Below, piece by piece: positions 4,123 through 57,033 of a stretch of 64,000 nucleotides of DNA. A program made the translations under genes and the position numbers. Location of the stretch: assembly GCA_020444065.1 (NCBI GenBank), contig JAHLLQ010000004.1:198662-262661 (forward strand), in the 5' to 3' direction. Numbering within the stretch: position 1 is the first letter of the stretch; the number at the start of each line of letters is the position of its first letter. The notes beneath the pieces are model-generated. The model had not been told where the DNA came from, did no database searches, and saw nothing but the letters and a program-made list of their open reading frames with translations. This DNA comes from a bacterium (GTDB taxonomy: Bacteria > Sumerlaeota > Sumerlaeia > SLMS01 > JAHLLQ01).

Positions 4123-4155
4123 TCGCCGGGCGAAACCTCACAAAAGTCTGTCGTA

Positions 4156-9992: not shown

Positions 9993-10038
9993 GGACGTCT
10001 CCTGGCGAAATCGATGTTTGTTTAAGAGAGGTTCTGAA

Positions 10039-12319: not shown

Positions 12320-12366
12320 GCGAACACGGGCAAGGGGGATTGCCCGCTGCCGCTATTCGCTGCGCC

Positions 12367-13017: not shown

Positions 13018-13035
13018 AGTATCGTCCTTTCGTTC

Positions 13036-13719: not shown

Positions 13720-14320
13720 TCTCGAAGAGAAGGTCGATTGAACTCACAGTTGCACGGACGATCCCAGAGCTCAAGTCCTCACTGCACAGGATGTCCAGGA
13801 ATCGGATCATAGAAAGGCATGGTAGGGTCCATTCGGAGCAAAACGGCGTCGTTTGGACCGGTCAATCTTTAACAGCCGTGAAAACCGGCGGGCAAAGTGA
13901 GAGCGGAAATTCGAAGAGAAGTGATTTTCCATGCCAAGCGCCTTCGTTTTATCAAAATCCTGCGACGCGGCTTCTTGTCTTACTCAGTTTGAGCGCACCA
14001 AGACTTCATCGTGAAAGATTGATATAATTGGATTTGTGCTGTTTATTTACCGCTTGAGAAACCGCGGGCGAGCAAGCCCTTAACCAGAGGCCTGGGCACC
14101 CGGTTTTTATAAAACGTTTCATTGTATTTTTCCAAATTTTCGGAATTCGAAAGATTAATCGCGTTGCACGTTCGCACCGTTTTTGATTGAAGTGGTCCAA
14201 CGTCAATAAAGGCTTTGCCTGTCGGGGGGAAGCCCAAGTGACGAAATCCAAATTGTCCGAAAAGTCGAGCGTCGCACCGCACCGCATCGCCGGCTCAGAA
14301 GGGCAGAAGGGAAAGTCACC

Positions 14321-15736: not shown

Positions 15737-15796
15737 TCCGCAGGCTTGACTCATGGGGGGACGCTCGGATGCCTCGTTTGAGCGTGTCACCGTGAC

Positions 15797-15864
15797 GGGG
15801 GCTTCGGCGATAAAGTCCGTTCTTCGGGGGAAAGCGGACCTAGCCGAAGCCCCCTTTCTTTAAA
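15797..15864 (+). terminator. structured 3' element / probable intrinsic terminator downstream of amylase
   Basis: 12-bp stem GGGGGCTTCGGC / GCCGAAGCCCCC enclosing a 34-nt loop with an inner GTCCG/CGGAC pair, followed by TTTCTTTAAA. The long loop makes a simple terminator assignment uncertain. Confidence 0.5.
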
Positions 15865-16050
15865 GTCTGTCGGATCGCGCCACACCTCGGCGCCGGCCGG
15901 ATCGATCGCAAGATCGGTCCGGCCGAATTCCTTTTTTAGGCGAGGCATTGCCTCAAGCCACTTGGCCGCTCGCGCAACTCGCCGCAATGGAGCACACTCA
16001 CATGGTGCTTCTATTCAGCACTGCAAAGAATTGAAAGGGGAGAGGAGAGA

Positions 16051-19382: not shown

Positions 19383-20155
19383 CACGCCCTCCACCGCAGC
19401 GATTCAATCTGCCGCACCGCCAGGAACAGGAACAAGAAGGCGAACAGCACGAAATACGCGCCATCGACTGCCGATATCGATCCGGCCAGGAATCCTTCGA
19501 TATGCCCGACGATCGTCAGATGTTCTGCCAACTGCGCCAATTCCGGCGACCGGAAGGCTCCGAGCAACGTCGAGACGATCAGAAGCATGAAGATGACAAT
19601 GTATGTCAGCACCGCGGCGACGACTTGCGATTCCGTCAGGCTGGAGAAGAAGACACCCAGGGCGACGTACGCCAAAGTCGCCAGCACCAGCGCGCCGTAA
19701 CACGTCGCCACGACCGCCCACTCCGGATCGCTCAACCACGTGACGATCGCAGGAAACACGAGAGTCAGCGCGAGGTAGACGAGAAGGGCGGTACTGTTGG
19801 CGAGGAACTTCCCAAGCACCAGGCTCCATTCTCCGGCCGGCGTGGTTCGCAGCAGCGCGAGCGTGCCGTGTCGGCGTTCCTCAGCAAACGCACGCATCGT
19901 CAGCATCGGAACCTGCATCAGTAGGAAGAAGTGAATGACCTGGAAGAGTTGTGTGACCAGCGCGACCGTAACGTTGGAACTGACGTTGTTCTCCTGCGCA
20001 TATCCTGGATCGGCGAAACCCAGCATCATAACGACGAAGACGAGGCCGCTGGCCAGGAAGAACACGCCCGACAGGACCCAGAAGAGCGAAGTCGTGAACA
20101 GCGCACGCAGATCGCGACGATAGACGAGCATTGTCTGGCGAATGGCGGCCATCAT
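19382..20155 (-). CDS. ABC-2 family transporter permease (GldF-like)
   Basis: Track ORF 257 aa, six hydrophobic helices; start overlaps the ATPase stop (ATGA at 20152..20155). Confidence 0.75.
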   Translation of the reverse strand: MMAAIRQTMLVYRRDLRALFTTSLFWVLSGVFFLASGLVFVVMMLGFADPGYAQENNVSSNVTVALVTQLFQVIHFFLLMQVPMLTMRAFAEERRHGTLALLRTTPAGEWSLVLGKFLANSTALLVYLALTLVFPAIVTWLSDPEWAVVATCYGALVLATLAYVALGVFFSSLTESQVVAAVLTYIVIFMLLIVSTLLGAFRSPELAQLAEHLTIVGHIEGFLAGSISAVDGAYFVLFAFLFLFLAVRQIESLRWRA

Positions 20156-21108
20156 GACTCCGTCCCCACTTTCGCCATCGGATCGTTGATCGCGCGCAGG
20201 AAGATTTCTTCCAGAGTCGCTTCCTCTTCATGGAGATCCAGTAGTTCCATGCCGCCATCGAGGATCGCACGTGCGATCAGCGGACGGAACTCCATGCGCC
20301 CCTGCCATTTCACGCGCAGATAGCCTTCACCCTTCGGTGCGCCGGAGAGCACCTCGATCTCCGTATCCGGTGCGGCTTCGCGCAACAGGTCCGCCGCCTC
20401 GGCGGGCAAGCCTTGCACATGCACGCGGACACGGCGCTCGGCGCTTTGCTGGCCAATTTCTTTGACCGGGCCCTGTGTTACGATACGGCCCTGGTTTAGA
20501 ATCACGACGCGCGTGCACGTCATGGCGACTTCCGGCAGGATGTGCGTCGATAGAATCACTGTGCGGTGTCCGCGCATCTTATGAATCAGATCGCGGATTT
20601 CTGAAATTTGGCTGGGATCGAGCCCCACGGTTGGCTCGTCCAGGATCAGGACACGCGGATCGCCGAGAAGGGCCTGAGCCAAGCCCACGCGCTGCCGCAT
20701 GCCCTTGGACAAGTTCCCGACCAGCCGTCCGCCCACGTCAGAGAGACCGGTTTCCTCGAGCGACCGATCCACCTGGAAGTTCACATCGCGCGCTTCGACC
20801 AGCTTCATCCCCGCGACGAACTTCAGGTAACTGCGCACTGTCATCTCGGGATAGAGCGGCGCCTCTTCGGGCAGGTACCCGAGCAGCCGGTGAACGTCGC
20901 GGTGGCGGCGCGTCACGTCGAAGCCGCCGATCTGCGCCGAACCGCTGGTGGGCAGCGCGAGACCAGTCAGGATCTTCATTGTGGTTGTCTTGCCTGCACC
21001 ATTCGGGCCCAGAAAGCCAAGGATCTCCCCCTCCGGCACGTCAAAGGACAAGCCGTCGAGGGCCCGATTCGGCCCGTAGAACTTCGTCAGGCAATCGACA
21101 TGGATCAT
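20152..21108 (-). CDS. ABC transporter ATP-binding protein (GldA-like)
   Basis: Track ORF 318 aa; Walker A GPNGAGKTT, signature LSKGMRQR, Walker B ILDEPT. Confidence 0.9.
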   Translation of the reverse strand: MIHVDCLTKFYGPNRALDGLSFDVPEGEILGFLGPNGAGKTTTMKILTGLALPTSGSAQIGGFDVTRRHRDVHRLLGYLPEEAPLYPEMTVRSYLKFVAGMKLVEARDVNFQVDRSLEETGLSDVGGRLVGNLSKGMRQRVGLAQALLGDPRVLILDEPTVGLDPSQISEIRDLIHKMRGHRTVILSTHILPEVAMTCTRVVILNQGRIVTQGPVKEIGQQSAERRVRVHVQGLPAEAADLLREAAPDTEIEVLSGAPKGEGYLRVKWQGRMEFRPLIARAILDGGMELLDLHEEEATLEEIFLRAINDPMAKVGTES

Positions 21109-21158
21109 CGTCGAGAAGATTCCGGCTTCATCGCGAAGGTGGCGTCGCCGGCGAGCGA

Positions 21159-21995
21159 TTACAGACGCTCGATAATGCCGGCAACCAGTTGACAGAATTT
21201 CTCACCAACCAGTTTGCCCGTCTCCATCACTTCCTCGTGGGTCGTGACGACGTCGGACTTCAGCACCAGCGAGTTCGTGATCACCGAGATGCCCAGCACG
21301 CGTGCGCCGGCGTGTACAGCCACGAGGTTCTCCGGCACGGTCGACATGCCGACGGCATCGGTCATGCTGCGGAACATCTGGACTTCGGCCTGTGTTTCAT
21401 AGGTCGGGCCGGTGCTGGCCAGGTACGTGCCTTCCTGCAGTGTGATTCCCAAGTCGCGGGCCGTGCTGCGGGCCAACTCCATCAGCTCCGGATCGTACGG
21501 AGCCGACATATCCGGGAAGCGCGGCCCGATCGAATCCAGGTTCGCGCCGATCAGCGGATTACGGAACTGGTTGTTGATGTGGTCGTTGATCAGCATCAGG
21601 TCGCCGGGCGTGAAGAGACGATTCACACTGCCGGCGGCATTGCTCAGAATCACTGTCTCGACCCCGAGCGACAACAGCGCACGCAGCGGAATCACCGTCT
21701 CGCGCACATCGACGCCTTCATAGACGTGCTTGCGGCCGCTCATGACGATCACGGGCTTACCGCCGACCTTGCCCCAGACCAGGCGCCCGGCGTGGCCAAC
21801 CACGGTGCTTTGGGGGAAGTGTCGCAGCTCGTCGTAGGAAACCGACTTGGCATCCTCGACGGATTCGCCGAACTTGCCGAGGCCGCTGCCGGCCACGACC
21901 AGGATCTTCGGCACATCGCCGACCTTCTCGCGCACGCTGTCCGCGGCGTCCTTGATCAGCGCTTCATGTTGTTTCGGATCGTCGAGATGACTCAC
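21159..21995 (-). CDS. purine nucleoside phosphorylase (PNP/MTAP family)
   Basis: Track ORF 278 aa; PNP-family pattern (VVGHAGRLVWG, YEGVDV, STVPE). Confidence 0.85.
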   Translation of the reverse strand: MSHLDDPKQHEALIKDAADSVREKVGDVPKILVVAGSGLGKFGESVEDAKSVSYDELRHFPQSTVVGHAGRLVWGKVGGKPVIVMSGRKHVYEGVDVRETVIPLRALLSLGVETVILSNAAGSVNRLFTPGDLMLINDHINNQFRNPLIGANLDSIGPRFPDMSAPYDPELMELARSTARDLGITLQEGTYLASTGPTYETQAEVQMFRSMTDAVGMSTVPENLVAVHAGARVLGISVITNSLVLKSDVVTTHEEVMETGKLVGEKFCQLVAGIIERL

Positions 21996-22021
21996 GTCTT
22001 CTTCCTCATTTCAGAAAATGC

Positions 22022-22729
22022 TCAGCCCAGCTTCTTGCGCAGGCGCCACAGTGTCACGAAGGCTTTTACGATTTCCAGCCCTGAAATCTTCGATTCTCCT
22101 GCCCGCCGATCGTGGAAGACGATCGGGATCTCCCGGATGCGCGCGCCGCGGCGCTGGCAGACAGCCAGCAGCTCCATCAGGCAACTGTATCCATCCGAAC
22201 GAATCGAATCCAGATCGATGCCGCGCAGCAGCTTCGTGCGATAGCACCGATAGCCGCTCGTGCAATCCCGTGCCTTCAGTCCCAGGATCATTCGCGCGAG
22301 CGTATTCGCGCCCCAACTCAGGACGTAGCGATGCGGACCCCAGTTCCGGATGCCGCCCCCGGCGATATACCTCGACCCGACGACCACATCCGCGATCCGC
22401 GCCATGTGCAGAATCTCGTACAGGTGCCTCGGATTATGCGACAGGTCCGCGTCCATCGTGATGGCGAGGTCGTATTCCCGCTCCATCGCCCAACGGAACC
22501 CCGCCAGGTAGGCCGTTCCCAGCCCCAGCTTGCCTTCGCGCTCCAGCAAATGCACGCGCCCGGGGTACTCTTCGGCCCGCTCGCGAACCAGGTCGGCCGT
22601 TCCATCCGCCGACGCGTCATCCACGACCAGCACATCCACCTGTCCGCGCTGTTCCATCAGACCATCGATCAGATGGCCGATGTTCTCCACTTCGTTGTAG
22701 GTCGGAACGATGCAAACGGCACGCGGCAT
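22022..22729 (-). CDS. GT2 family glycosyltransferase, polyprenol-phosphate mannose/glucose synthase-like
   Basis: Track ORF 235 aa; CIVPTYNE...VLVVDDASADGT...MDADLSHNP pattern typical of Dpm1-like GT2 enzymes. Confidence 0.85.
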   Translation of the reverse strand: MPRAVCIVPTYNEVENIGHLIDGLMEQRGQVDVLVVDDASADGTADLVRERAEEYPGRVHLLEREGKLGLGTAYLAGFRWAMEREYDLAITMDADLSHNPRHLYEILHMARIADVVVGSRYIAGGGIRNWGPHRYVLSWGANTLARMILGLKARDCTSGYRCYRTKLLRGIDLDSIRSDGYSCLMELLAVCQRRGARIREIPIVFHDRRAGESKISGLEIVKAFVTLWRLRKKLG

Positions 22730-23520: not shown

Positions 23521-24975
23521 TCAGTTCCCCTGCCCGCGCTGAATCTGCTTGGTCAGGTACCCCACGATGCTCGCCATGTTGGCGTCCGCATCCACGGCCT
23601 TCTTGATCTTGCGGAACGCATAGATCACTGACGTGTGGTCCTTGCCGCCGAATTTCGCCGCGATGTCGGGGAAGCTCAGGTCCGTCAACTCGCGGCACAA
23701 GTACAACGCCAAGTGACGTGGTTGACTGAATTTCTTGGACCTATTGCTGCCCAGCAGCTCTTGCGGCGTAATCTCGAAGTAATCGCACACGCAGCGCTGC
23801 ACGTCCTCGATACTGACCCGGCTCTGGGGCTGGCCGACCATCAGGTGTCCCAACACCTCGCGGGCGGATTCCAGGTTGATCGGACAGTCGTGCAGTCCCG
23901 CGTAGACCTTGATGCGTTTCAGGGTACCCTCCAGCTCACGAATGTTCGACTTCACGCGCTCGGCGATGAACTGCAGCACGTCGCTCGGGATCCGCAGGCC
24001 TTCCTGGCGCGCTTTCTGCCGCAGAATTGCGATTCGGGTTTCGAGGTCCGGCGGCTGGATATCCGCAATCACGCCCCACTCGAAGCGCGACCGCAGCCGC
24101 TCCTCGAGCGTCGCCAGGTCACGCGGGGGGCGATCGCTGGAAAGCACGATCTTCTTCCCGTCGTCGAACAGCGTGTTGAACGTGTGGAACATCTCGTCCT
24201 GCGTGCGTTCCTTTCCCATCAGAAACTGCACGTCATCCAGCAGCAGAACGTCCACATTCCGGTATTGATTACGGAACTCCACCTTGCGGTTCATCTGGAT
24301 GCTCTCGATGAAGCTATTGATGAACTGCTCGGAGCTCGCATACATCACGCGCACCGTGCGGTCGGCCTCGTACAACGCGTGACCGATGGCCTGCATCAGG
24401 TGCGTCTTGCCCAGACCCGACTGTCCGTAGATGAACAGAGGGTTGAAGGCCTGGGAGTTAGAGTCTGCCACGGATTGGGCCGCTGCGTGCGCGTAGCGAT
24501 TGCTTTCGCCCACGACGAAATCTTCAAACCGATACCGGGGATTGATCCGTGGCGGATCCACGACCCGCGGGCTGGGTGCCGAATGCTGGAAGCCTCGGCG
24601 GCCGCCCATCTGGCGGAAATCCACAACGCTGCGGCGGTGAGACATCCCACCGTCGAATGGCGTCTGCTCTTCCGTGGAAGAGGACTCTTCAGTGCTATCT
24701 GTTTTCTCGCGGACGATCAGATCGACGTCCACATTGCGGCCTGCAGCCTCGCTCATGACCGAGCGCAACTGCCGGCCGTATTTTCGTTCAATCCAGTTCT
24801 GGTAAAACTCGCTTGTGACGGACAAGGTCACCCGCTGTGACTCTTCGCAAATTCCATCAAAAGTTATGGGCAATAACCACGCATTATACTCAGCTTCTCC
24901 CACATTTTCGCGCAAGATATCACGAACCCTGTCCCATACATCGGGCGTGATGCGGGTCATGAAAGAGTGTTCCAT
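23521..24975 (-). CDS. dnaA: chromosomal replication initiator protein DnaA
   Basis: Track ORF 484 aa; AAA+ Walker A GQSGLGKTHL; Walker B LLLDDVQF; C-terminal DnaA signature ...KDHTSVIYAFRKI. Confidence 0.95.
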   Translation of the reverse strand: MEHSFMTRITPDVWDRVRDILRENVGEAEYNAWLLPITFDGICEESQRVTLSVTSEFYQNWIERKYGRQLRSVMSEAAGRNVDVDLIVREKTDSTEESSSTEEQTPFDGGMSHRRSVVDFRQMGGRRGFQHSAPSPRVVDPPRINPRYRFEDFVVGESNRYAHAAAQSVADSNSQAFNPLFIYGQSGLGKTHLMQAIGHALYEADRTVRVMYASSEQFINSFIESIQMNRKVEFRNQYRNVDVLLLDDVQFLMGKERTQDEMFHTFNTLFDDGKKIVLSSDRPPRDLATLEERLRSRFEWGVIADIQPPDLETRIAILRQKARQEGLRIPSDVLQFIAERVKSNIRELEGTLKRIKVYAGLHDCPINLESAREVLGHLMVGQPQSRVSIEDVQRCVCDYFEITPQELLGSNRSKKFSQPRHLALYLCRELTDLSFPDIAAKFGGKDHTSVIYAFRKIKKAVDADANMASIVGYLTKQIQRGQGN

Positions 24976-27577: not shown

Positions 27578-27663
27578 GAGGTCTCCTTCGGAGCGAATGA
27601 TGTTGGGTGGGAGGTTTCCGCGCGGGGCGGCGGGTCGTCAAGCGGGCGGTCCTGATTGCCGGC

Positions 27664-27717
27664 TTTGGGGATAAAAACAAACCCTTCCGGGACGGTCGAT
27701 CCGCCCCGGAAGGGTTT
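27664..27717 (-). terminator. rho-independent terminator between rpmB and gltX
   Basis: 13-bp perfect stem AAACCCTTCCGGG / CCCGGAAGGGTTT with 13-nt loop, followed on the reverse strand by GTTTTTATCCCC. Confidence 0.65.
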
Positions 27718-27876
27718 CAATTCTTCGAGCTGGAATCCGCGACCGGCGGGGTGGACAACCGGACCGTTCGCGCACCCGGAACGGTAAACTTATGGCTGCT
27801 TCCTTCCGGACCTGACCAGGTTCGTTCCCGTCCGTCGCACGGGGCCCGGCTGTCCACTCCGCCGGCCCGCGGGGGA

Positions 27877-28110
27877 TCAGCCCTGCTGGCGCTTCAGTTC
27901 TTCGAGGATGACCTTGCGCGGGGCGGCCTTGGCCACGGCACCGCTCTTCAGGGCCTTCGTCGAGACGTAAGCGTGACGAGTCGTGCCGTTTTCGTCGACA
28001 ATCTTGACCCGCTGGATGTTCGCACCAAAGGTGCGCTTCGTCTTGTTATTGGCGTGGCTGACGTTGTTGCCAACAGCCCGACGCTTGCCTGTCACTTCAC
28101 ACTTTGCCAT
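27877..28110 (-). CDS. rpmB: 50S ribosomal protein L28
   Basis: Track ORF 77 aa, [28 protein letters not shown]... matching the L28 pattern (C.VTGK....GN.VSH....KR.F). Confidence 0.9.
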
Positions 28111-28255
28111 GATTCTATTCCATACACCGAAATCGGATTATTTCCCGCAAGGGCGCAGCAAGCTAGGACCGGCCCCGGTCCCAGGTCAAACACAAAACGC
28201 GCCCGATCGCCCTTGCGAGGCCGGATTTACTGTCCGGCGTGGCTGATTTCGAGCC

Positions 28256-29365
28256 TTACAGCGCCTTCTTCAGCACCGAAACGACCTCTTCCAACTCCTC
28301 GTCTTTCATATAGGCGAACAAGGGCAGGTTGAGGACGCTCTTCGCCAGCCAGGCCGCCGTCTCGCCGCCCACCTGGCCGGCCATCCAGGCCGCCGCGCCG
28401 GGCTGGGTCGACATGGAACCGGGGTAAACATTGCCGAAGCCGATCCCATTCTCTTTCAGAACGGCTTCGATGGACGGGCGTTTTTCTGGATCCGGAAGTG
28501 TCACGTTCAGGTACCCATTCTCGACGTAACCCTCTGGCGGACCAACGGTTCGGACGCCGATCGCTTCCAGATTCTCGCGGTACCACTCGGCGCTCTTGCG
28601 CCGCGAGGCCAATCGCGGATCGGCAAACTCCAATGCCAGGTTGAGATAGGCCGCGTCGAAACCGCCCATGCGGCTGTTCCAGCCTACCAGCCCGTGGCCG
28701 TAGTGGCTCGTCCGACCGTGGTTGCCCAGGACGCGTACGCGCTCGGCCAGGTCCTTCGTCGAGCAGACGACCGCACCCGCGTCGCCGCAGGAACCCAGCA
28801 CCTTGGCCGGATAGAAGGAGATCGTCGACAGGAACGCGTCCTTGTAGATGGACTCGCCCTTGTACTGAACGCCGAAAGCCTGGGCGCCGTCTTCGATCAG
28901 GGCGATGCGGCGCTCGGCGCAGAACTGCCGGTAGTCGTCCAGGCGGGCCGATCCCCATCCGTACAGGTGGACCAGAATCGCGGCCCGCGGCGAGAACTCG
29001 TCGACGGCCTGGCGGAACTGCTCGAAGTCCATCTGCAGGTCGTCTTCGCTGATGTCCACGGTCACCGGCTGCGCGCCGACGTTGACGACGGCCTCAAAGG
29101 TCGCCCAGAAGGTCGAATCGGGCACCAGCACCATGTCGCCCGGGCCGACGCCCGCGGCGCGCAAGGCCAGTTGCAGCGCGTCGGTCCCGTTGGCACAACC
29201 CACCACGGCTGGGGCGCCGCTCAGGCTCACCAGCTTCTCCTCGAGTGCGGCCGCTTCCGGCCCACCGACGAACTTCGTGTTCTCCGAGACGTCCCGGCAC
29301 TTGTCCATCCAGCGGTCCATAAAGCCGGGCTCGAACCGCCGCAAGTCGATGAAAGGAACTGCCAT
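28256..29365 (-). CDS. DegT/DnrJ/EryC1/StrS family PLP-dependent aminotransferase
   Basis: Track ORF 28256..29470; preferred start ATG 29365..29363 (MAVPFIDLRR...); DegT-like pattern throughout. Confidence 0.85.
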   Translation of the reverse strand: MAVPFIDLRRFEPGFMDRWMDKCRDVSENTKFVGGPEAAALEEKLVSLSGAPAVVGCANGTDALQLALRAAGVGPGDMVLVPDSTFWATFEAVVNVGAQPVTVDISEDDLQMDFEQFRQAVDEFSPRAAILVHLYGWGSARLDDYRQFCAERRIALIEDGAQAFGVQYKGESIYKDAFLSTISFYPAKVLGSCGDAGAVVCSTKDLAERVRVLGNHGRTSHYGHGLVGWNSRMGGFDAAYLNLALEFADPRLASRRKSAEWYRENLEAIGVRTVGPPEGYVENGYLNVTLPDPEKRPSIEAVLKENGIGFGNVYPGSMSTQPGAAAWMAGQVGGETAAWLAKSVLNLPLFAYMKDEELEEVVSVLKKAL

Positions 29366-29760
29366 AGTTGATCGCTTTCGAAATGAAGTTCCGGAGATTC
29401 TCCTCCACTCCGGCCGGCAAGAATGCGGAGCGGCGTGGCAGGGAGTCAATGGCAGGGCGATCAGATTCACCCAATCTCTTCGCCGGGCGGGATCGATCCC
29501 TGGCCAAGGCGGCTCCCGCGCTCAGTCAACCATCCCGTGAGCCGGATCTGGAATGTGGCATAAACCCGGTGATTCCAGGGCCATATAAAGGTGCTTTAGT
29601 GCCAAGTTCCTGCCCGAAGCGGGGAAAACCCTTGCGGCACAACGGCCGTGGCACGCAAATCGCCCGTGGCGGCCGTGTGAAAGGCGGGGGGAAGTGCGTC
29701 TGCTTGACGGCCTGTAACTGTACCTCCCCAGAACCAGACGGGACGACCAAGAGGAACCGA

Positions 29761-31047
29761 ATGACGAATCCACTACATCAGCAAAATGCCGGCGCAGCGG
29801 CCTATCCCTTTAATGTCGTCGAAGTCTCCGGCGACGAAGCTGCGCCGACTCCCTGCGCCCCCATTTTTGATAAGGCGTCCCGATTCACCAAGGCCGACGA
29901 AATGGTCGACCTGGGGTTGTATCCTTATTTCCGCTGCATCGAGTCCGCCCAGGACACCGAGGTCTTCATCGACGGCAAGAAGATGCTGATGCTCGGGTCC
30001 AACTCGTACATGGGCCTGACCAACGATCCGCGGATCAAGGAAGCTGCCAAGAAGGCACTCGACACGTACGGCTCCGGGTGCGCCGGTTCGCGGTTCCTGA
30101 ACGGCACCCTGGACATTCACGTGCAGCTCGAAGAGCAAATCGCCGACTACATGGATATGGAAGCGGCGCTGGCTTACACCACTGGATTCCAGGCCAACCT
30201 GGGCACGATTGCAGCCCTCGTCGGCAAAGACGATCACGTTTTTATCGACCGAAGCGATCACGCTTCCATCGTCGATGGCTGCCGCTTGGGCTTTGGCAAG
30301 ATCCACAAGTTTCCCCACAACGACATGGAGCGGCTCGAGCGCGCCCTGAAGCAGCACGATGCGACCGGTAAAGTCATCGTGGTCGACGGCGTGTACTCGA
30401 TGGAGGGCGACATCGCGAAGCTGCCCGAAATCGTGGCGCTGGCGCAGAGATACCACGCCGGCATCATCGTAGACGACGCACACGGCATCGGCGTCCTCGG
30501 CAAGAAGGGCAATGGCACGGCGGATCACTTCAACCTGACCGCCGAGACGGACCTGGTTGTCGGTACATTCTCGAAGTCGCTTGCCTCGGTCGGTGGATTC
30601 GTCGCCGGCAGCCGCAGTGTCATCAATTTCCTGAAGCATCACAGCCGCGCGCTGATCTTCTCGGCTTCGATCTCTCCGCCATGCGTGGCTGCAGCCCAGA
30701 AGGCCATGGAGATCATCGAGAACGAGCCCGAGCGCCGCGAAGCGCTTTGGCGGAACACGCACTTCATCGCCGAGGGCCTCAAGAGCCTTGGCTTCAACAC
30801 TGGCCACTCGGAAACGCCGATCATTCCGATTCTGATCGGCGAGACGATCACCTGCTTCCAGTTCTGGCGGGCCTTGCACGACGCCGGGATCTTCGTGAAT
30901 CCCGTCGTTGCGCCGGCTACTCCGCCGGACCAGGCCCTGATCCGCATCAGCGTCATGGCGACCCACACGATCGACCAGTTGACTTACGCGCTGGAGCAGA
31001 TCGAGCGCATCGGAAAGCAGACAGGCGTCCTCCAGGCCCTGACCTGA
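29761..31047 (+). CDS. alpha-oxoamine synthase family PLP enzyme (8-amino-7-oxononanoate synthase / serine palmitoyltransferase-like)
   Basis: Track ORF 29368..31047; preferred start ATG 29761 behind RBS AAGAGGAA; PLP-lysine motif [16 protein letters not shown]; AONS/SPT-like overall. Confidence 0.85.
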
Positions 31048-31074: not shown

Positions 31075-31108
31075 GCCGGGGTCGATTGAACGGCCCCGGC
31101 TTTTTTTT
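31075..31108 (+). terminator. rho-independent terminator downstream of the alpha-oxoamine synthase gene
   Basis: Stem GCCGGGG / CCCCGGC with 12-nt loop followed by eight consecutive T. Confidence 0.75.
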
Positions 31109-31211: not shown

Positions 31212-34200
31212 ATGGCAACCTTCGCGAATCACCGAAGTCTGGCGTTCAGTTCCCTCATCCTGCTGCTTACTCTCTGTGCCGGGACGGCTTTGGCCGCAAA
31301 GATCCCCGCCAAGGGCATCGAATCCCTGCCCCACGAATACCTGTTCGAGCAGGCCGATAGCCTTCGGTCATTTTCAGATCGGATTGAACTCCAGGGATCC
31401 ATCAACTCTGACGAGTTGCACCTGCTGCGCCGTGCATGGGTGGTTGCCGCTCCTCCGGGAGAGATCGAATACGAGATTCGCAGCCTTACCATCAAAGATC
31501 ACATCACGGGCGTTCCGGTGGAACTGACTTCCGCCGAGGGCATTGACGAGGTCCGGGAGAGCTACGGATTCAGAACTGGTTTCATCGTGGAAGAAATGGG
31601 CATCATGCGAAATGTCCGACTGCTCCGCGTGGTCGTGAACGGCGATGCCCAGATTCTCTACAACAAGCGCAGCTTCTCGCTTCGTCAGTTCGACATCGTC
31701 ATCAAGTTCCCAGAATGGAGCCCAGAGGATGTCTCCAACGGCTCCTTCTCAAGTGAACAAAGCAGCTTGCGCCAGATGCTCGAACAATCGGTCGCGAACC
31801 CCGAGATGCTGGACCTCTACGCGCAGGCAGACCCGCCTGAGACCGAGACAAGCCTGCACGCAAAGTCCGCTTGGCAGCCGCGTCCCGAACTGACAGCGGA
31901 GGACTTCCCTTGGCTGAAGATTCCGATCACCGAGGACGGCTTGTACGCGATCGACGGGCGCTGGCTGTCGGGTCAGGGGCTGGATCCCTCGACGATTGAT
32001 CCGGCATCGCTCTTCCTCGTGAACCGCGGCGAAGAAGTCGCCCTGGTGCAAGCCGGCCCTGAGGGGGCATCGTTCGCCACCGGCGCCCGTCTAATTTTCC
32101 TCGGGCTGAAGAATCACTCCAAAGAAACAAACGAGCGCATCTACTTTCTTGGTCGTCGAGAGACGCCCCAGGAACGTCCCGCTCTCGCCACTGCTGAAGA
32201 TCTCGATGAAGATGCAGAAGTCGAACGCACCTACCGCCGGAAGACGCGCATCGAGGAGGACGTGAACCTCGAAACGCGCGTTGGCAGCTTCCTGAGTATT
32301 CGCGAGATGACATGGGTATGGGATGAATTGCCGCGCGACACGCCGGAGAGTTTCACCTTCGATCTGCAGACCCTTCCATCGTCGGCACCCGCAGCCAAGG
32401 GATCGATCAAGGTCTACTACGCGGGCGTTGGCCTGACCGGCGTTGTGACCCTCGCGGTGAAACTCAATGGCAAGGAACTGGTGCCCGGTGCGACCCTAAC
32501 AAGTCGCCGCAACGTGGTGGATTTCGATATCCCCGAAGGCCTCCTGCAGGTGAACGACAACGTGTTCGAACTCACCATGAAGCAGCCTACGGGCTCGGGC
32601 AATCGCCAGATTCCGCCCATCTATCTCGATTACATCGAACTCGAGCATCAGAGTCTCTTCCGCGCGCACGATGGCCAGCACCTCGCGGACTTCGGCAGCG
32701 AGAAGAGTATCTCCGGCAACGTTCGGCTCGGCGCCGTTGGCTTCCGTCCCTATCGGATGCTGGCAGTGGACGTGACGAAGCCTGAGCAGCCGCTCCGACT
32801 TCCCGTCGTTGAAGGCGAAGGCATCATTTACGTCCTGGCCGATGTCACGCCCGAAACTCGGATTCTCATGATGGAAGACGACGTCGTTCCACGTGCCCCA
32901 GCCGGCGAGCCACTGCATTGGCAGGATTGGCGCGCGCAGGATTCAAGCGCTCAAGTCGTGGTCATCTATCATCCGGATTTCGAAGAGTCCGCACATCGGC
33001 TCGCCGCAGACATCGAGTCCTCCGGACGCGATGTCGTCCTCGCCGATGTAGAAAGCATCTATGAAGCCTACACGGACGGTGAACTGAGTGTCGATGCGAT
33101 CCAGATGTTCCTGCGCGATGCTATCTATCGTTGGGATGGTGAGCGTCCGACTCACGCAATCCTCGTTGGCGATTGCACGAGCGATGGGCAACGCGTTTCG
33201 CGCAACGACGTGATCAACTACGTGCCGACGCATGTGATCGAGGAAGCAGAGACGCATGCGATCGATGAGTACGCGACCGACCAGTACTACGCTTGGCTGG
33301 CCGGCGACGATGAAGTCGCCGATATCATCGTTGGTCGTATCTCCGTGAACAACATCACCGACGCCGACACCGTGGTGGATAAGTCCATCGAGTATCGCCG
33401 GCAAGACCCGTCAATTTGGGCCAGCCGCTTTGTTACGGTCTCCGACCCGGCCGAGTTCGAAAGCGTCTCCTCGATGCTGGTTCACACGTCTGTCGACCCG
33501 TGGTTTGACTACACGGCAATCAATACAGCGGATTATCCCTGGGAGGATAACTTCTACCTGCCGCGGAACTACATCCAGGGCGACGAGATCAAAGTCGCTC
33601 CGGTTGTGACGACGAAGTTGCAGGAAGAAATCGACAGCGGACTCGGCGTCATTTCCTTCTTCGGTCACGGTTCGCCGAATATTTGGTCGAATCAGCGCAT
33701 CTGGTTCGGCGGCGACAGCGAGAACAGCGATAACCTTCGCCTGCGCAACCGCGACCGGCTGGCGTTCATGACGTCGTTCACCTGCAATAATGGTGCGATC
33801 GACTATCCCGTACCGCGTTGGAATGTCTGCATCGCGGAAGACATGATGCGTGTTCCAAAGGGGGGAATGGTGGCGTGCTTCGTACCGTCCGGTCCTGGGT
33901 ACTCCGAGCGCCACTTGCGTCTGGCTGAAGGCTTCTTCCGCACCCTGACGCATTTGAAGGTTCGTGAGTTTGGCCAGGTCGCCGAGATGTCGCGACTCAC
34001 CTATCAGGCCATGCTTGGCTCCGATGATCACGCGCGCATGTTCATCTTCCTCGGCGATCCCACGCTGAAGTTCCCAGCGATCGAGCGCGATGCGGAACTT
34101 TCGATTCGCCCCGACGTCTTGTCGGCGGCCGTTGATCGTCAGCCTATTCGTGCGGCGATGACCACCGAGGAAGAAGAACTGACAACGGGGACGATGATCC

Positions 34201-35738
34201 TTCGCGGCCGCAATGGCCAGGTGATTGCCGAAGGCGAAATGACTCCGGATGGACGTGGCGGCGTTGTCGGTGCCGTGATGGCTGAATTGCCCCGCGACCA
34301 GATGGAGTATCGTCTGATCACGCGAGCGATGGGAAAGAGCGGCGAGCTGTATCGCGCGGGTATGCGAGTCCCTCGCGCGCCCTCGAAGGTCGTCATCGAA
34401 CTGGTCGAAATCGGCGACGTTAGCTATGATCCGCCGTCGCGCGAGTTCACTTACGTTCTCTACAACCAGGGAAACTTCGCGCAGTGGGGTGAGTTGAATG
34501 TCACCCGCCTTCACGACGGAAAACGCATTCAGGCAGGCGTGATTCCATTCGAACTGAAGGCGAAGGAACGCCAGTCCTTCCCGATTAGGCTGGAAGCGCC
34601 CCCCGGAGCTTACGTGATTCAAGCCAATGTGCATCCCTCGCGTACGTACGACTTAAACGAGGAACTTCCCAGCGCGTTGTCGACCGATTGCCTCGTCATT
34701 CCGGACCAGGAGAATCCCGAGGCGGATCTTGTGATTCCGACCGATGCGTTCCGAATTCTTCCTGCGAAGAGCAAGTCCTCCTCGCCATTGGCAGAGACGT
34801 TTATCGCAAACACCGGTGGTAAGCGTCCACGCGCGCGGCTGATTTACCGTGCAGCCTATCCGAATGGCAAAGTCGTGGAAGGCAGCCGGGTGATCGGCTG
34901 GGTCGATCCGGGAAAGGCTGTCCGTTCCACGATCCCAATGCAGATCGAACTCGAAATGACTGCCGATTTGAAAGTTGAATTAATCAGTGAGTCGATGGAT
35001 TTCGAGGATCCGAATCCAGACAATAACTCCCTGACGCGGACGGTTACGGCGGAGTCGATGCCGGACATTCAACTCATTCCCGGCAGCCTGAAGATCTCGC
35101 CCCCGCACCTGGCGGAAGGCGTGACGATCTTCGTTGAAGGTAAGGTCGTCAATCGCGGCCAGACACGTTCTGCAGGTTGCAAGGTTGCGCTCTTCCCGGC
35201 CGGAGACACGGGATTCAACGAGCCTCTGCGCAGCCTGGCCGGACAGAATGGTTCCGACATTCCGCCCCTGCAGCCAGGTTCATCGTGGCCGTTCAAGATT
35301 CGCTGGGATGCCCACGACAATTTGAACGTCGATTCCGTTCAATTACTCCTCGACTCGGATCAGATCCTCGTCGAATCGAACAAACGGAACAACCTCATCA
35401 GCGTGCCACTCGAAATTAAATCGAAGTGGAAACTGGCTCCGCGCGGAATTGCTTTCAAGCAGGATCGCCCGGGTTACTTGACTCTGATCGCGCGTGTCGC
35501 GAACGAAGGCCAAACCGACGCCCGACGCGTGAATGTGATGTTCTATCGAACCACTGACCAGAACGATGAGACCTTCCTCGGCGAAGTGCTCGTCGATCGC
35601 ATCCCCGCCGGCAACATGGCTCTCATCCAGTTCCCATGGAACCTGGAAGGCGAGAACATGCGCCAGAAGGTCCAGCCCAGCTTCAACGTATCGCTGAAGG
35701 GCAGCCTGCAGCGAATCTCGTCGGTCACGGAAGAGTAA
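31212..35738 (+). CDS. giant secreted clan CD cysteine peptidase, gingipain-like (C25-like), with C-terminal CARDB-like repeats
   Basis: Track ORF 1508 aa; signal peptide MATFANHRSLAFSSLILLLTLCAGTALA; putative catalytic His-Gly dyad in FFGHGSP (His codon 33666..33668) and Cys in SFTCNNG (about 33783..33785); C-terminal Ig-like/CARDB-like repeats. Family call from motif memory. Confidence 0.7.
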   Translation: MATFANHRSLAFSSLILLLTLCAGTALAAKIPAKGIESLPHEYLFEQADSLRSFSDRIELQGSINSDELHLLRRAWVVAAPPGEIEYEIRSLTIKDHITGVPVELTSAEGIDEVRESYGFRTGFIVEEMGIMRNVRLLRVVVNGDAQILYNKRSFSLRQFDIVIKFPEWSPEDVSNGSFSSEQSSLRQMLEQSVANPEMLDLYAQADPPETETSLHAKSAWQPRPELTAEDFPWLKIPITEDGLYAIDGRWLSGQGLDPSTIDPASLFLVNRGEEVALVQAGPEGASFATGARLIFLGLKNHSKETNERIYFLGRRETPQERPALATAEDLDEDAEVERTYRRKTRIEEDVNLETRVGSFLSIREMTWVWDELPRDTPESFTFDLQTLPSSAPAAKGSIKVYYAGVGLTGVVTLAVKLNGKELVPGATLTSRRNVVDFDIPEGLLQVNDNVFELTMKQPTGSGNRQIPPIYLDYIELEHQSLFRAHDGQHLADFGSEKSISGNVRLGAVGFRPYRMLAVDVTKPEQPLRLPVVEGEGIIYVLADVTPETRILMMEDDVVPRAPAGEPLHWQDWRAQDSSAQVVVIYHPDFEESAHRLAADIESSGRDVVLADVESIYEAYTDGELSVDAIQMFLRDAIYRWDGERPTHAILVGDCTSDGQRVSRNDVINYVPTHVIEEAETHAIDEYATDQYYAWLAGDDEVADIIVGRISVNNITDADTVVDKSIEYRRQDPSIWASRFVTVSDPAEFESVSSMLVHTSVDPWFDYTAINTADYPWEDNFYLPRNYIQGDEIKVAPVVTTKLQEEIDSGLGVISFFGHGSPNIWSNQRIWFGGDSENSDNLRLRNRDRLAFMTSFTCNNGAIDYPVPRWNVCIAEDMMRVPKGGMVACFVPSGPGYSERHLRLAEGFFRTLTHLKVREFGQVAEMSRLTYQAMLGSDDHARMFIFLGDPTLKFPAIERDAELSIRPDVLSAAVDRQPIRAAMTTEEEELTTGTMILRGRNGQVIAEGEMTPDGRGGVVGAVMAELPRDQMEYRLITRAMGKSGELYRAGMRVPRAPSKVVIELVEIGDVSYDPPSREFTYVLYNQGNFAQWGELNVTRLHDGKRIQAGVIPFELKAKERQSFPIRLEAPPGAYVIQANVHPSRTYDLNEELPSALSTDCLVIPDQENPEADLVIPTDAFRILPAKSKSSSPLAETFIANTGGKRPRARLIYRAAYPNGKVVEGSRVIGWVDPGKAVRSTIPMQIELEMTADLKVELISESMDFEDPNPDNNSLTRTVTAESMPDIQLIPGSLKISPPHLAEGVTIFVEGKVVNRGQTRSAGCKVALFPAGDTGFNEPLRSLAGQNGSDIPPLQPGSSWPFKIRWDAHDNLNVDSVQLLLDSDQILVESNKRNNLISVPLEIKSKWKLAPRGIAFKQDRPGYLTLIARVANEGQTDARRVNVMFYRTTDQNDETFLGEVLVDRIPAGNMALIQFPWNLEGENMRQKVQPSFNVSLKGSLQRISSVTEE

Positions 35739-35740
35739 GC

Positions 35741-37012
35741 ATGTCTCGTCGCTTCGCACACCTGCTTCTGATTTGCTTGATCGCAATCACCGCGATTGGA
35801 TGTTCCCGCGCGAAGCGCGATGCGAACCTGAAAGCCAACGCACCGACAGGAACGGCGGAGTTCGGTCTTTGGGTTCAGCCGGAGACGGCAGCCGAGTCTT
35901 TCCAGACTGTGGCAGAGGCGACGGCCTTCTTCGATGACCTGAAAGAGCAAAAGGTTTCGACGGTCTTTCTTCAGGTCAAAGATCGCCAGGGCGATGTGAT
36001 CTTCGCAACGAAGCACGCGGCCGCCATTCCTGGTGCAGAGCATCTGCTCGCAAACGCCGCGCGGGGGGCGAACGCGGCCGGTGTCCAATTGATCGCCGCC
36101 TATCCAGTCTTTGTGGGCAATCCTCGGCCCGGTGAGGAACTCATCGAATACACTTACGATGAGTCGGCTGGTCATGCACGCGTCCAACCACGCGAATCAG
36201 GTCCGCTACCGCGTCTGAATCCATCCATCCGCGCTGTCCGCGACCGAGAACTCGCCATCCTGCGAGAGCTGGCTGCTGTGCCTGTAGATGGATTCTGTCT
36301 GACGCATGCCGGCTATCCGGGAAGTCAGGCGGACTTCTCCGACGAGGCGCGCGCGGGTTTCGAAGCCGCCATGGCCCGTCCTGTCAAAGTCTGGCCGGAT
36401 GATATCTTGGGCTTCCGCCCGGGCGAGCATCGCCCCGTCGCAGAGCCAGGGGATTTGTGGGAAGCGTGGGTTTCCTGGCGCGCGAGTCTGTTGCGCGACT
36501 TCCTCTTCCAGGCTCAGGGGGCGTTGACTGTCGGCACGGAAGTTCGTCGGCCAGTGCTCATCATGGCCGAGGGCTACTACCCCCTGCATTACCGCCAGGG
36601 TGTGAACTGGGCCAGCCCCGCCGCCTCCGTGCAGAAGGCCTTTCCATCGGCTCCGCCACGCTACGGCGGAACCGGTACCGGGGCGATCTTCGACGGCGTC
36701 GTGTTGGAGCTGCTGGCTCCGATCCCAACGATCGAGGAAGCGGTCGCCAACGAGATGGCCTGGTGGTCGAGCGCCGAGGGGGCCTCCCGACTGGCATCCG
36801 AGCTATTGCCGCCCGACGCCACGCGATGGGCGGCGGTCACGCCGATGCCCTTCGCGGATTCAGAGGGTAACCTGAGCAGTGGCGCGCGCGAGGCCTTCCT
36901 GCGCTCCACACACGAATGCGCCCGGGCGAACCCGGGCGTACTGGTACTTGACCTGGACTACATGAATGGCTGGGGCCTGTGGGCGGATGTTCAGGGCGCG
37001 CTGGCGCGCTAA
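35741..37012 (+). CDS. lipoprotein, possibly glycoside-hydrolase-like family 10 (GHL10/DUF187-like) TIM-barrel protein
   Basis: In-frame ATG 35741 two nt after the protease stop; lipobox LIAITAIGC; resemblance to GHL10 is tentative. Confidence 0.55.
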   Translation: MSRRFAHLLLICLIAITAIGCSRAKRDANLKANAPTGTAEFGLWVQPETAAESFQTVAEATAFFDDLKEQKVSTVFLQVKDRQGDVIFATKHAAAIPGAEHLLANAARGANAAGVQLIAAYPVFVGNPRPGEELIEYTYDESAGHARVQPRESGPLPRLNPSIRAVRDRELAILRELAAVPVDGFCLTHAGYPGSQADFSDEARAGFEAAMARPVKVWPDDILGFRPGEHRPVAEPGDLWEAWVSWRASLLRDFLFQAQGALTVGTEVRRPVLIMAEGYYPLHYRQGVNWASPAASVQKAFPSAPPRYGGTGTGAIFDGVVLELLAPIPTIEEAVANEMAWWSSAEGASRLASELLPPDATRWAAVTPMPFADSEGNLSSGAREAFLRSTHECARANPGVLVLDLDYMNGWGLWADVQGALAR

Positions 37013-37015: not shown

Positions 37016-37336
37016 TCATTCCACGTCGTCATCGCTCTGGTCGCTCGAGGCGACATCGATGCTCTTGATTTCCTTGCCCGGTTTGAAAGTCACCACGCGG
37101 TGCGAGGGAATCGGGTAGGATTTCTTATTCTTTGGATTCCGGCCCATCCGCGCCTTGCGCTGCTTGACCTGGAAGACTCCGAAGTCTCGGATTTCCAGTC
37201 GCTCATCGCGGATAATCACTTCTTTCACCGACTCGATGATCTGGTCGACGATAATGAGGGCCTCCTTGTCCTTGATCTGTTGTTGATCGTTGGACAGGCC
37301 GTCCGAGATTCGTTTGACGATATCGGCTTTGATCAT
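37016..37336 (-). CDS. HU/IHF family nucleoid-associated DNA-binding protein with acidic C-terminal tail
   Basis: Track ORF 106 aa; IHF/HU arm pattern ...GVFQVKQRKARMGRNPKNKKSYPIPSHRVVTFKPGKEIK. Confidence 0.85.
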   Translation of the reverse strand: MIKADIVKRISDGLSNDQQQIKDKEALIIVDQIIESVKEVIIRDERLEIRDFGVFQVKQRKARMGRNPKNKKSYPIPSHRVVTFKPGKEIKSIDVASSDQSDDDVE

Positions 37337-47964: not shown

Positions 47965-49446
47965 ATGACCACAAAACTCATCGAATTGATCGAGTCGTTC
48001 CCTGGCCGGCGCGTGCTGGTGGTGGGTGATGCGATTCTGGATCACTATGTCATTGGAAGCGTCAGCCGCACGTCGCCAGAGGCGCCGGTCGCTGTCCTGC
48101 GCGTCACGGAAGACGAATGGCTGCCGGGCGGGGCGGCAAACGTCGCGCGTAACCTGGCGGCGCAGCGCTGCCAAGCCACGCTGATTTCTCTTCGCGGCGA
48201 CGACGAACACGGTCGGCGCCTGGAGGAGTTGCTCGGCCGTGATGCGAGCATTCGTCTCGCGTTTGTCGTCGACAAGACGCGTCCCACAACGCTTAAGACC
48301 CGCTGCGTGGCTCAGGGTCAGCAGATGATGCGTCTGGACCGCGAAGAGTCCGGCCCAATCTCCGACACGGTTCGGAAGCGCGTAATGACCGCCGTGCGCC
48401 GCGAGATGAAGCAAGCCGATGGGGTGATTCTCAGCGACTATGGCAAGGGCCTTCTGACGACCGCCCTGGTGCAGGAGATCATCGCCGCCGCTCGTGAGTA
48501 CAACGTTGAGGTGCTGGTCGATCCGAAGGGAACCGACTACTCGCGCTACAAGGGCGCGACTCTGATCACGCCCAATCAGAAGGAAGCCCAGGAGGCCAGT
48601 GGCATCTCGATCGTCGACGAGGAATCCGCTCGTGAAGCCGCCCGCATCTTGCAGGCGAAGGTGCGTGGCAAGGCGATCTGCATTACCCTCGGCGGGCGCG
48701 GTGTGGCTGTCTTCCCGCGGCGCGGTCGCTCCGTTCAGATTCCTGCCCGCGCGCGCGAAGTCTTCGACGTCACGGGCGCGGGCGACACGTTCATCGCGCT
48801 GTTCAGCCTGGCGCGATTCTGCGGCGCGACCTTTCCGCAGGCCGCAGAGATCGGTAATGTTGCCGCCGGCATCGTTGTTGGACGCGCAGGCGTTGCGACC
48901 GTTTCTCTCGATGAATTGAAGCGCGAATTCCTCGGCCAGTCTGCCAACCGCAAGGCGATGGGAATGCGCGAACTGGCGGAAGTCTGTCACTCGCTCTCAC
49001 GAGCCGGCCGGAAGACGGTGTTCACCAACGGCTGCTTCGATGTCTTGAATGTGCGGCACATCCGGCTGCTGGAGCAGGCGCGCGCCCTCGGCGACGTGCT
49101 CGTCGTTGCGCTCAACAGCGACGCGAGCGTCCGACGCCTGAAGGGCGAGCCGCGACCGCTGCTGACCGAGTCGGAACGGGTTGAATTGATCGGCTCGTTG
49201 CCGTACGTTGACTACATCACGGTCTTCGACGGTGAAACGCCGAACGAACTGCTCGAACGGTTGCGCCCGGATATTCTGGTGAAGGGCACTAACGTTGAGA
49301 ATGTCGTTGGCCAGGAAATTGTCGAAGGCTACGGTGGCGAGATTCGCCTGCTCGATCTCGGATTCGGCCCCAGCGTCGACGAGGTCATTCATCGCGCTGC
49401 CGAGGGCACAGCCCCCAATAAACGTAAGCGAAAAGGACGCACATGA
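47965..49446 (+). CDS. hldE: bifunctional D-glycero-beta-D-manno-heptose-7-phosphate kinase / heptose-1-phosphate adenylyltransferase
   Basis: Track ORF 493 aa; N-terminal ribokinase-like domain (DVTGAGDTFIA) and C-terminal nucleotidyltransferase domain (TNGCFDVLNVRHIRLL); starts 4 nt after the deoC stop. Confidence 0.85.
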   Translation: MTTKLIELIESFPGRRVLVVGDAILDHYVIGSVSRTSPEAPVAVLRVTEDEWLPGGAANVARNLAAQRCQATLISLRGDDEHGRRLEELLGRDASIRLAFVVDKTRPTTLKTRCVAQGQQMMRLDREESGPISDTVRKRVMTAVRREMKQADGVILSDYGKGLLTTALVQEIIAAAREYNVEVLVDPKGTDYSRYKGATLITPNQKEAQEASGISIVDEESAREAARILQAKVRGKAICITLGGRGVAVFPRRGRSVQIPARAREVFDVTGAGDTFIALFSLARFCGATFPQAAEIGNVAAGIVVGRAGVATVSLDELKREFLGQSANRKAMGMRELAEVCHSLSRAGRKTVFTNGCFDVLNVRHIRLLEQARALGDVLVVALNSDASVRRLKGEPRPLLTESERVELIGSLPYVDYITVFDGETPNELLERLRPDILVKGTNVENVVGQEIVEGYGGEIRLLDLGFGPSVDEVIHRAAEGTAPNKRKRKGRT

Positions 49447-55739: not shown

Positions 55740-55769
55740 TTGCCTTTCATTTCCCCCAGGAGGGCATTG

Positions 55770-56992: not shown

Positions 56993-57033
56993 GCCGGCCT
57001 GTCGAGTGAGTTCGACAGGCCGGCTTCTTTGTT
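56993..57033. terminator. bidirectional intrinsic terminator between convergent genes
   Basis: 13-bp perfect stem GCCGGCCTGTCGA / TCGACAGGCCGGC, loop GTGAGT; T-rich on both sides (TTCTTTGTT on plus; reverse strand ATTTTTCCC). Confidence 0.75.

Follow-up and report, generated by a model that had tools for sequence, protein, structure and literature searches.

A family C25 peptidase with a PorU-like front end and its DigH-related lipoprotein neighbor in Candidatus Sumerlaeota

To our knowledge, peptidases of family C25 are known almost wholly from the gingipains of Porphyromonas and from PorU, and these two are both bound up with the Bacteroidota's type IX secretion system (T9SS). What, then, might a predicted C25 peptidase do in a bacterium of Candidatus Sumerlaeota, and what has it to do with the lipoprotein whose gene begins only 2 nucleotides (nt) after its own gene ends? 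The two genes in question lie in a 64,000-nt stretch of the 432-kb contig JAHLLQ010000004.1, the whole of which we call the window. Both have so far been annotated as hypothetical proteins, and both can now be named at the family level. The answer that we tentatively favor, with a confidence that stops just short of even, is that of a processing peptidase that resides in the envelope and is expressed along with a hydrolase of envelope glycans. The two genes are:

31212..35738, plus strand: C25 cysteine peptidase gene, 1508 amino acids (aa), ATG start; "hypothetical protein KQI84_12165" in NCBI.
35741..37012, plus strand: lipoprotein gene, 423 aa, KQI84_12170 in NCBI; a divergent GHL10/DUF4985 superfamily member.

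An initial annotation of this DNA had described the first open reading frame (ORF) exactly as it is present. Its placing of a lipoprotein gene 2 nt past the protease stop is borne out as well, by the stop codon TAA at 35736-35738, the ATG at 35741 and the lipobox of the second protein. The parts of the protease on which its family assignment turns are:

32958..34070, plus strand: Peptidase_C25 catalytic domain, residues 583-953.
33666..33668, plus strand: codon of the catalytic His819, inside the motif GHGSPNIWSNQR.
33783..33785, plus strand: codon of the catalytic Cys858, inside the motif FTCNNGAIDYP.

The protein is a member of peptidase family C25 (clan CD), with a predicted peptidase activity. 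The Pfam profile Peptidase_C25 (PF01364) matches it over model positions 2-373 of 374, with 225.6 bits against a cutoff of 23 (E 1.6e-66), and the catalytic domain has the caspase-like alpha/beta fold of that family. The initial annotation had proposed a clan CD fold, to be given up if profile searches spoke against it, together with a catalytic pair drawn from the motifs FFGHGSP and SFTCNNG. The profile search upheld the fold, and the pair fared equally well. His819 (in FFGHGSP) and Cys858 (in SFTCNNG) align with His211 and Cys244 of RgpB and with the catalytic dyad of PorU in HMMER alignments to the solved structures, and neither varies among the six closest homologues or across an alignment of 23 sequences, true PorUs among them. 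Conservation around the active site is very strong among the closest homologues (GHGSPNIWSNQRIWFGG...FTCNNGAIDYP), which suggests that the enzyme has one specific conserved substrate.

The region ahead of the catalytic domain points to PorU in particular:

31296..32957, plus strand: N-terminal beta-rich domains, residues 29-582, of which the part from residue 307 on is homologous to the PorU pre-catalytic region.

The NCBIfam model of the T9SS sortase PorU (NF033707) aligns its positions 109-741 of 1095 with residues 307-963 of the window protein at 194.3 bits, against a cutoff of 420; true PorUs, which our searches retrieved as distant matches, score 1240-1388 bits on the same model. On the NCBIfam "PorU2" model (NF052324) the window protein reaches 108 bits (cutoff 450). 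The AlphaFold (AF2) model of residues 29-1000 is confident, with a predicted local distance difference test (pLDDT) value of 85.7 and a predicted template modeling score (pTM) of 0.87. Foldseek places PorU (6za2) at the top of its matches to this model (834 aligned columns, E 2.9e-26) and RgpB next (421 columns, E 7e-18). The two fold searches disagree in their ranking of structural matches, and AlphaFold may lean toward RgpB and Kgp because these are older structures that may have been in its training data. Taken by sequence and model together, the catalytic core is gingipain-like, and the multidomain region before the core is common to PorU alone. The protein is of the C25 family, yet it is neither a gingipain nor a PorU.

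Downstream of the catalytic domain the protein carries an array of domains and a short tail:

34074..35699, plus strand: five beta-sandwich (immunoglobulin (Ig)/CARDB-like) domains, residues 955-1496, from AlphaFold and Pfam.
35073-35399, plus strand: CARDB domain, the fourth of the five, residues 1288-1396, a Pfam match.
35673..35735, plus strand: conserved C-terminal tail, residues 1488-1508 (PSFNVSLKGSLQRISSVTEE), from orthologue comparison.

In the AlphaFold model of residues 955-1508 (pLDDT 83.8), the Ig/CARDB-like C-terminal array that had been noticed earlier reappears as five all-beta sandwich domains. CARDB (PF07705) is the sole domain of the array above its Pfam threshold (41.8 bits against 22.7); the other four segments are predicted beta-sandwiches with weak mutual similarity (hhalign E 1e-3 to 1e-2), and the modeled array as a whole resembles generic Ig/macroglobulin-like arrays. 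Neither Pfam nor NCBIfam gave a match at E<=1 to a T9SS C-terminal domain (TIGR04183/PF18962, Por_Secre_tail), and a profile of the last domain compared with the C-terminal domains of PorUs reached a probability of 0.3%. The initial annotation was therefore correct that no T9SS-type sorting domain is present. Its comparison with the gingipains of Bacteroidetes needs revision, since the organism belongs to Candidatus Sumerlaeota and not to the Bacteroidota, so that there is no default expectation of such a domain. T9SS cargo and PorU proper were both considered as identities for the protein and rejected, on the missing C-terminal domain (Pfam, NCBIfam and profile comparison) and on a PorU score far under the cutoff.

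The tail itself is highly conserved. A pattern [KR]P[ST][FY]x-x-LKGSLQRISSV, followed by 2-12 more residues, ends 16 of the 17 readable orthologue C-termini; in the form PSFxVxLKGSLQRISSV it is kept even in orthologues that are 27-33% identical overall (C-termini of the L001-L017 loci). Disorder is predicted for its last 12 residues (pLDDT <50 at model residues 543-554). A terminal peptide that is conserved yet, by the model, disordered looks like a docking or regulatory motif. The motif GSLQRISSV occurs on no ORF other than the protease in the DNA that we sampled. An all-versus-all comparison of the last 110 residues of the ORFs in about 360 kb of Sumerlaeota DNA turned up no recurrent C-terminal sorting domain, and none of these ORFs has a PEP-CTERM or LPXTG-like end.

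The second gene encodes a protein whose N-terminus, MSRRFAHLLLICLIAITAIGC followed by S, holds by inspection the lipobox LIAITAIGC, with S after the cysteine; lipobox-like sequences are visible in several of its orthologues too. This lipoprotein has no direct Pfam match to GHL10 (PF02638) at E<=1, and its sole Pfam match, to DUF4985, lies under the cutoff (25.9 bits against 39.3). Its relatives are more telling. A word-indexed search found one close relative and an exhaustive HMMER search 302 at E<=1e-3, and among the 111 that were scanned with Pfam, DUF4985 was matched by 82, GHL10 by 73 (best E 7e-27), DUF4015 by 40 and GHL6 by 39. A profile of the family (A6) matches Escherichia coli DigH/YddW with 99.3% probability (E 1.8e-20, 296 columns), and a profile built from Sumerlaeota members only matches the N-terminal half of DigH, with 92.6% probability. 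Comparison of the lipoprotein profile with the sequences in PDB gave no significant match. Because the relatives match GHL10 and the family profile matches DigH, the label "GHL10-like" given by the initial annotation is right at the superfamily level, and its picture of a co-transcribed lipoprotein of that superfamily gains support. As judged from sequence, the lipoprotein belongs, as a divergent member, to the GHL10/DUF4985 superfamily, is distantly homologous to DigH and has a predicted hydrolase activity. DigH specifically hydrolyzes denuded peptidoglycan glycans and collects at the site of division (PMC12288456).

How widely is the peptidase found? We sought relatives in one genome per GTDB species and obtained 18 loci, all of them from Candidatus Sumerlaeota (formerly BRC1). 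The orthologues are 27-46% identical to the window protein, and the complete ones are nearly constant in length. A neighbor-joining tree of the N-terminal and catalytic region, built from the 18 loci and three more loci obtained through a protein lookup, places every Sumerlaeota protein in a single clade, which divides deeply into two branches (clades A and B) and stands apart from the true PorUs and from other PorU-like proteins. Near-constant length together with identity that falls to 27% fits the vertical inheritance of a core gene. In every lineage examined the neighbors are housekeeping genes (aminotransferase, HU, RluD, CoaX, BirA, QueA and also kinases), and none of these lineages has a degradative or transport cluster beside the protease gene.

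Directly 3' of the protease gene, a search with the lipoprotein profile located a homologue in the window as well as in L003, L004, L005, L007, L008, L014, L017, L020, L025 and L026. The pair is thus present in 11 of 18 distinct lineages, all in clade A, with a spacing that runs from a 4-nt gap to a 4-nt overlap. Clade A has lost it in L001, L002 and L006. At the clade B loci we found no conserved partner and no PorV-like gene; their neighbors are unrelated housekeeping genes, and the pair is absent from every one of them. The check for conserved pairing in related genomes that the initial annotation had called for thus comes out positive in one Sumerlaeota clade and negative in the other. Pairing goes back to the ancestor of one clade and is tight wherever it occurs; it is not obligatory, because seven of the 18 lineages lack an adjoining lipoprotein gene. 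In L025 a second GHL10 gene, clear by Pfam, lies convergently directly after the pair (15691-16749, minus strand).

This distribution bears on one possible role of the protease, namely that it controls the level or activation of the DigH-like lipoprotein, in the manner of Prc, which controls cell-wall hydrolases in E. coli. The translational coupling of the two genes would suit such a role, and E. coli DigH is itself listed among the Prc-regulated hydrolases (PMC12288456). The protease is, however, kept in the seven lineages (all of clade B included) that have no lipoprotein gene beside it, and its persistence there makes a dedicated regulator unlikely; in addition, such a role would need nothing near the size of this 1508-aa multidomain protein. 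We consider this explanation very improbable.

A few loci have neighbors of other kinds, which we regard as leads and not as evidence. MoxR/Bat genes adjoin the protease gene in two Sumerlaeota lineages: in L015 (6922-7929) and L016 (6797-7747) the gene of a MoxR AAA+ ATPase stands directly upstream on the same strand, and in L002/L024 (14500-23213; L024 is the same locus as L002) a complete MoxR-DUF58-VWA-BatA-BatD operon lies convergently downstream. In the Sumerlaeota locus L018 a Wzy_C O-antigen-ligase-TPR gene (12130-15072) begins 2 nt downstream of the protease gene. Three further loci hold PorU-like C25 genes beside surface-polysaccharide genes: Wzy_C, a BY-kinase-like gene and Poly_export in L021 (1-4057); GT9 and WecG glycosyltransferases in L022 (1-1546); and PMT_2 and an FGE-sulfatase/FlgD_ig protein in L023 (2621-6594). 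L022, a contig from an unidentified metagenome, also carries three tandem large C25 paralogues (1549-17768; 1811, 1255 and about 1807 aa) with Propeptide_C25, CARDB and ILEI, two of them separated by a 539-aa ILEI/CARDB protein.

Could the protein instead be a PorU-type sortase, or C-terminal signal peptidase, that acts outside the Bacteroidota and without a classical T9SS? Such an enzyme would remove a C-terminal signal and transfer envelope proteins to an amine-bearing glycan, such as lipopolysaccharide (LPS), some other polysaccharide of the surface, or peptidoglycan. In a PorZ-like role, the GHL10-like lipoprotein would present or trim the glycan, and the LKGSLQRISSV tail would be a docking or latency element. 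Homology to PorU that reaches beyond the catalytic domain argues for this idea, as does a partner with a putative glycan-binding, TIM-barrel-like domain, and the O-antigen-ligase gene next to the protease in L018 and the Wzy_C, Poly_export and glycosyltransferase genes that, in other bacteria, adjoin distant PorU-like proteins other than PorU are in keeping with it. These polysaccharide-gene neighbors are nevertheless anecdotal, since they come from four loci only. The PorU score of 194 bits against the 420-bit cutoff, where true PorUs reach 1240-1388, speaks against it, and so does the lack of a retained C-terminal domain. Nor did we see a PorV, PorZ or other T9SS gene, or a protein with a T9SS C-terminal domain, in the 64-kb window, and the comparison of ORF ends described above offers no recurrent sorting domain in about 360 kb of Sumerlaeota DNA. 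PorV and other T9SS components were likewise not found in the annotated flanks of the related Sumerlaeota loci. We found no link in the literature between a T9SS and Sumerlaeota/BRC1, and the Sumerlaeota genome papers make no mention of this protein or of any secretion system. We judge it improbable that the protein is such a sortase, though less so than that it is a regulator of its neighbor.

Where would the protease reside? Its N-terminus is read by inspection as a Sec signal peptide (MATFANHRSLAFSSLILLLTLCAGTALA followed by AK), basic at first and then hydrophobic:

31212..31295, plus strand: signal peptide (residues 1-28), by inspection; ALA/AK is its probable signal peptidase I site.

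About half of the orthologues have a lipobox-type cysteine in the signal peptide (e.g. LTGC, LAGC, INGC or VSSC), and the remaining ones look, like the window protein, to be signal peptidase I substrates. The initial annotation had called the secretion route of the 160-kDa protease unclear. Secretion as such needs revision: with a lipobox in about half of the orthologues, and with a partner that is kin to a cell-wall hydrolase of the periplasm, the protease is at least as likely to be kept in the envelope as to be secreted free.

Alternatively, the protein might be a nutritional, degradative protease that crosses the outer membrane, for instance through type II secretion, or is displayed at the surface, and that digests environmental proteins for uptake. 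Its Ig/CARDB domains would then bind the substrate or the cell surface, and the GHL10-like lipoprotein would help to degrade glycoproteins or the cell-wall debris of other cells. The gingipain-like core is in keeping with such a role, and so is the scavenging lifestyle proposed for the Sumerlaeota (PMC8092238). It fits poorly with a single conserved orthologue of constant architecture across the phylum in housekeeping surroundings, and with the lipobox that about half of the orthologues carry. The protease gene has no linked transporter or regulator for peptide use, no outer-membrane route could be identified by Pfam, NCBIfam or profile comparison, and the sole characterized relative of the partner acts on the cell's own peptidoglycan (PMC12288456). 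A nutritional protease is an unlikely reading but the main alternative, and in its freely secreted form it is a less likely role than envelope processing.

Our preference for envelope processing rests on several lines taken together: vertical conservation across the phylum with a constant architecture, housekeeping surroundings, frequent lipid anchors, a PorU-like front end, conserved active-site surroundings, and a partner related to a periplasmic cell-wall hydrolase. PorU itself is a surface-bound processing enzyme (PMC11285876). A number of observations weigh on the other side. The catalytic domain is structurally closest to the gingipains, and gingipains are broad virulence and nutritional proteases. 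CARDB/Ig arrays are frequent on secreted enzymes. The signal peptide of the window protein itself looks to be of the signal peptidase I type and not of the lipoprotein type. In the lipoprotein, the catalytic residues of GHL10 could not be assigned from our alignments, and seven of the 18 lineages have no lipoprotein gene next to the protease gene. Finally, Sumerlaeota are described as protein and polysaccharide scavengers with many peptidases (PMC8092238).

If the protein is an envelope-resident processing peptidase, the system might work as follows. The product of the first gene would be exported by the Sec pathway as a C25 peptidase and would cleave peptide bonds with its His819/Cys858 dyad. 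We infer its location and the type of its substrate: it would stay associated with the envelope, lipid-anchored in many orthologues and not as T9SS cargo, and would fill a conserved housekeeping role in the processing of exported or surface proteins. The five C-terminal beta-sandwich domains may be a spacer, or else a binding module for the substrate or the envelope, and we infer for the disordered conserved tail the role of a docking or regulatory peptide. The second gene, translationally coupled to the first in one of the two Sumerlaeota clades, would supply a DigH-related GHL10-like lipoprotein that acts on an envelope glycan, with peptidoglycan strands as its model substrate; the two proteins may be coupled in function as well.

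The borders of the two-gene transcription unit are set by its immediate neighbors:

29368-31047, plus strand: class I/II aminotransferase (Aminotran_1_2) gene, directly upstream of the C25 gene with a terminator between.
31075..31108, plus strand: intrinsic terminator of the upstream aminotransferase gene, the 5' border of the transcription unit.
37016..37336, minus strand: HU-type DNA-binding protein gene (Pfam Bac_DNA_binding, E 1e-23), convergent.

The terminator at 31075-31108 has a 10-base-pair (bp) stem with nine G-C pairs and a T8 tail (-28.5 kcal/mol, z -4.5). The HU gene begins 3 nt past the lipoprotein stop codon and, being convergent, forms the 3' border. The initial annotation had the pair bracketed by two strong terminators, this upstream one and another near 56993. 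The upstream terminator is real. A hairpin exists at 56993-57024 as well, a 14-bp bidirectional terminator common to the gene at 57041-61483 (minus strand) and the convergent gene at 55740-56966; it lies 20 kb from the pair, with many genes of both strands between, and does not delimit the operon; the HU gene does. A sigma-70 promoter scan upstream of the protease gene gave no match, which is uninformative for the phylum Sumerlaeota. An Aminotran_1_2 gene also stands directly 5' of the C25 gene in L001, L003, L004, L019, L020 and L026. The aminotransferase ORF of the window has 559 aa, about 200 more at the N-terminus than the orthologues of 426-432 aa, so that its start codon has probably been called too early.

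The rest of the window is ordinary chromosome, with dnaA, gltX, cysS, cmk, obg, a class A penicillin-binding protein gene, hldE and a signal recognition particle (SRP) RNA. dnaA (23521-24975, minus strand) suggests that the window is probably near the chromosomal replication origin. The SRP RNA, of the bacterial small type (27754-27851, minus strand; Rfam RF00169, 66.2 bits), overlaps a spurious plus-strand ORF at 27607-28332. The ORF at 47965-49446 (plus strand) joins a PfkB kinase domain to a cytidylyltransferase-like domain, the architecture of bifunctional HldE, and thus suggests a heptose-containing LPS and hence a two-membrane envelope in the window organism. Two other large ORFs have features of exported proteins: an 873-aa predicted secreted nuclease (4458-7079, plus strand) with Endonuclease_1, a Lamin Tail Domain and three PPC domains, in which no T9SS C-terminal domain was found, and a 1480-aa signal-peptide protein (57041-61483, minus strand) with FG-GAP and bacterial Ig-like repeats. 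A DUF4340 protein gene (16051-17973, minus strand) is followed by minus-strand ORFs at 17790-19394, 19382-20155, 20152-21108 and 21159-21995; the plus-strand ORFs 17904-19700 and 20475-22244 are probably spurious, because their G+C content at third codon positions is low and they have no Pfam matches.

What would these readings mean? The family unites a PorU-like front end with a gingipain-like core, has no T9SS C-terminal domain, and is encoded by a core gene across an uncultured phylum, often coupled to a gene for a relative of a cell-wall glycan hydrolase. Should the protein prove to process or anchor proteins of the envelope, it would reveal how enzymes of the PorU type work and have evolved beyond the T9SS, and would indicate a step in the building of the Sumerlaeota envelope that is yet to be described. 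If it were a sortase, a wider envelope-anchoring system would be the origin of the attachment enzyme of the T9SS, or would include a living relative of it. A protease that served only for feeding would be just one more in the set of peptidases that a scavenging bacterium has.

Among known proteins, the gingipains RgpB and Kgp of Porphyromonas gingivalis (MEROPS C25; PDB 1cvr, 4ief and 4rbm) offer the first comparison. Unlike these, the window protein has no match to the prodomain Propeptide_C25 (PF08126; no Pfam match at E<=1) and no T9SS type A C-terminal domain, and its host is a member of the Sumerlaeota and not of the Bacteroidota. It is about three times as long as the solved catalytic-plus-immunoglobulin-superfamily fragment of RgpB, and it carries PorU-like domains over about 550 residues at its N-terminus and five beta-sandwiches toward its C-terminus, all of which the gingipains lack.

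PorU (NF033707; PDB 6za2) is the best sequence match in PDB (E 2e-6) and has the pre-catalytic domains, the catalytic domain and the dyad in common with the window protein. In contrast to PorU, which keeps its T9SS C-terminal domain uncleaved (PMC11285876), the window protein has no such retained domain, and it lies far under the equivalog cutoff (194.3 against 420 bits). Its nearest relatives outside the Sumerlaeota are PorU-like C25 proteins that fall outside the PorU equivalog (for example P0007, P0008, P0013 and P0022). Like the window protein, these are large and multidomain, score below the PorU and PorU2 cutoffs (197-387 bits) and have the same N-terminal and catalytic layout. They are 20-25% identical to it over about half its length, and they differ in their C-terminal modules (FlgD_ig, SdrD-like and TSP3) and in having neither the LKGSLQRISSV tail nor a DigH-like partner gene; some distant PorU-like relatives carry Propeptide_C25, unlike the window protein.

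For the lipoprotein, the closest known relative is E. coli DigH (YddW), a glycosyl hydrolase of the GHL10 family. The two are alike in size (439 aa for DigH, 423 for the lipoprotein) and their N-terminal regions align, cysteine-bearing signal sequences included, whereas the window lipoprotein itself falls under every GHL10 threshold. No C25 protease gene adjoins digH in E. coli, in contrast to the Sumerlaeota pair.

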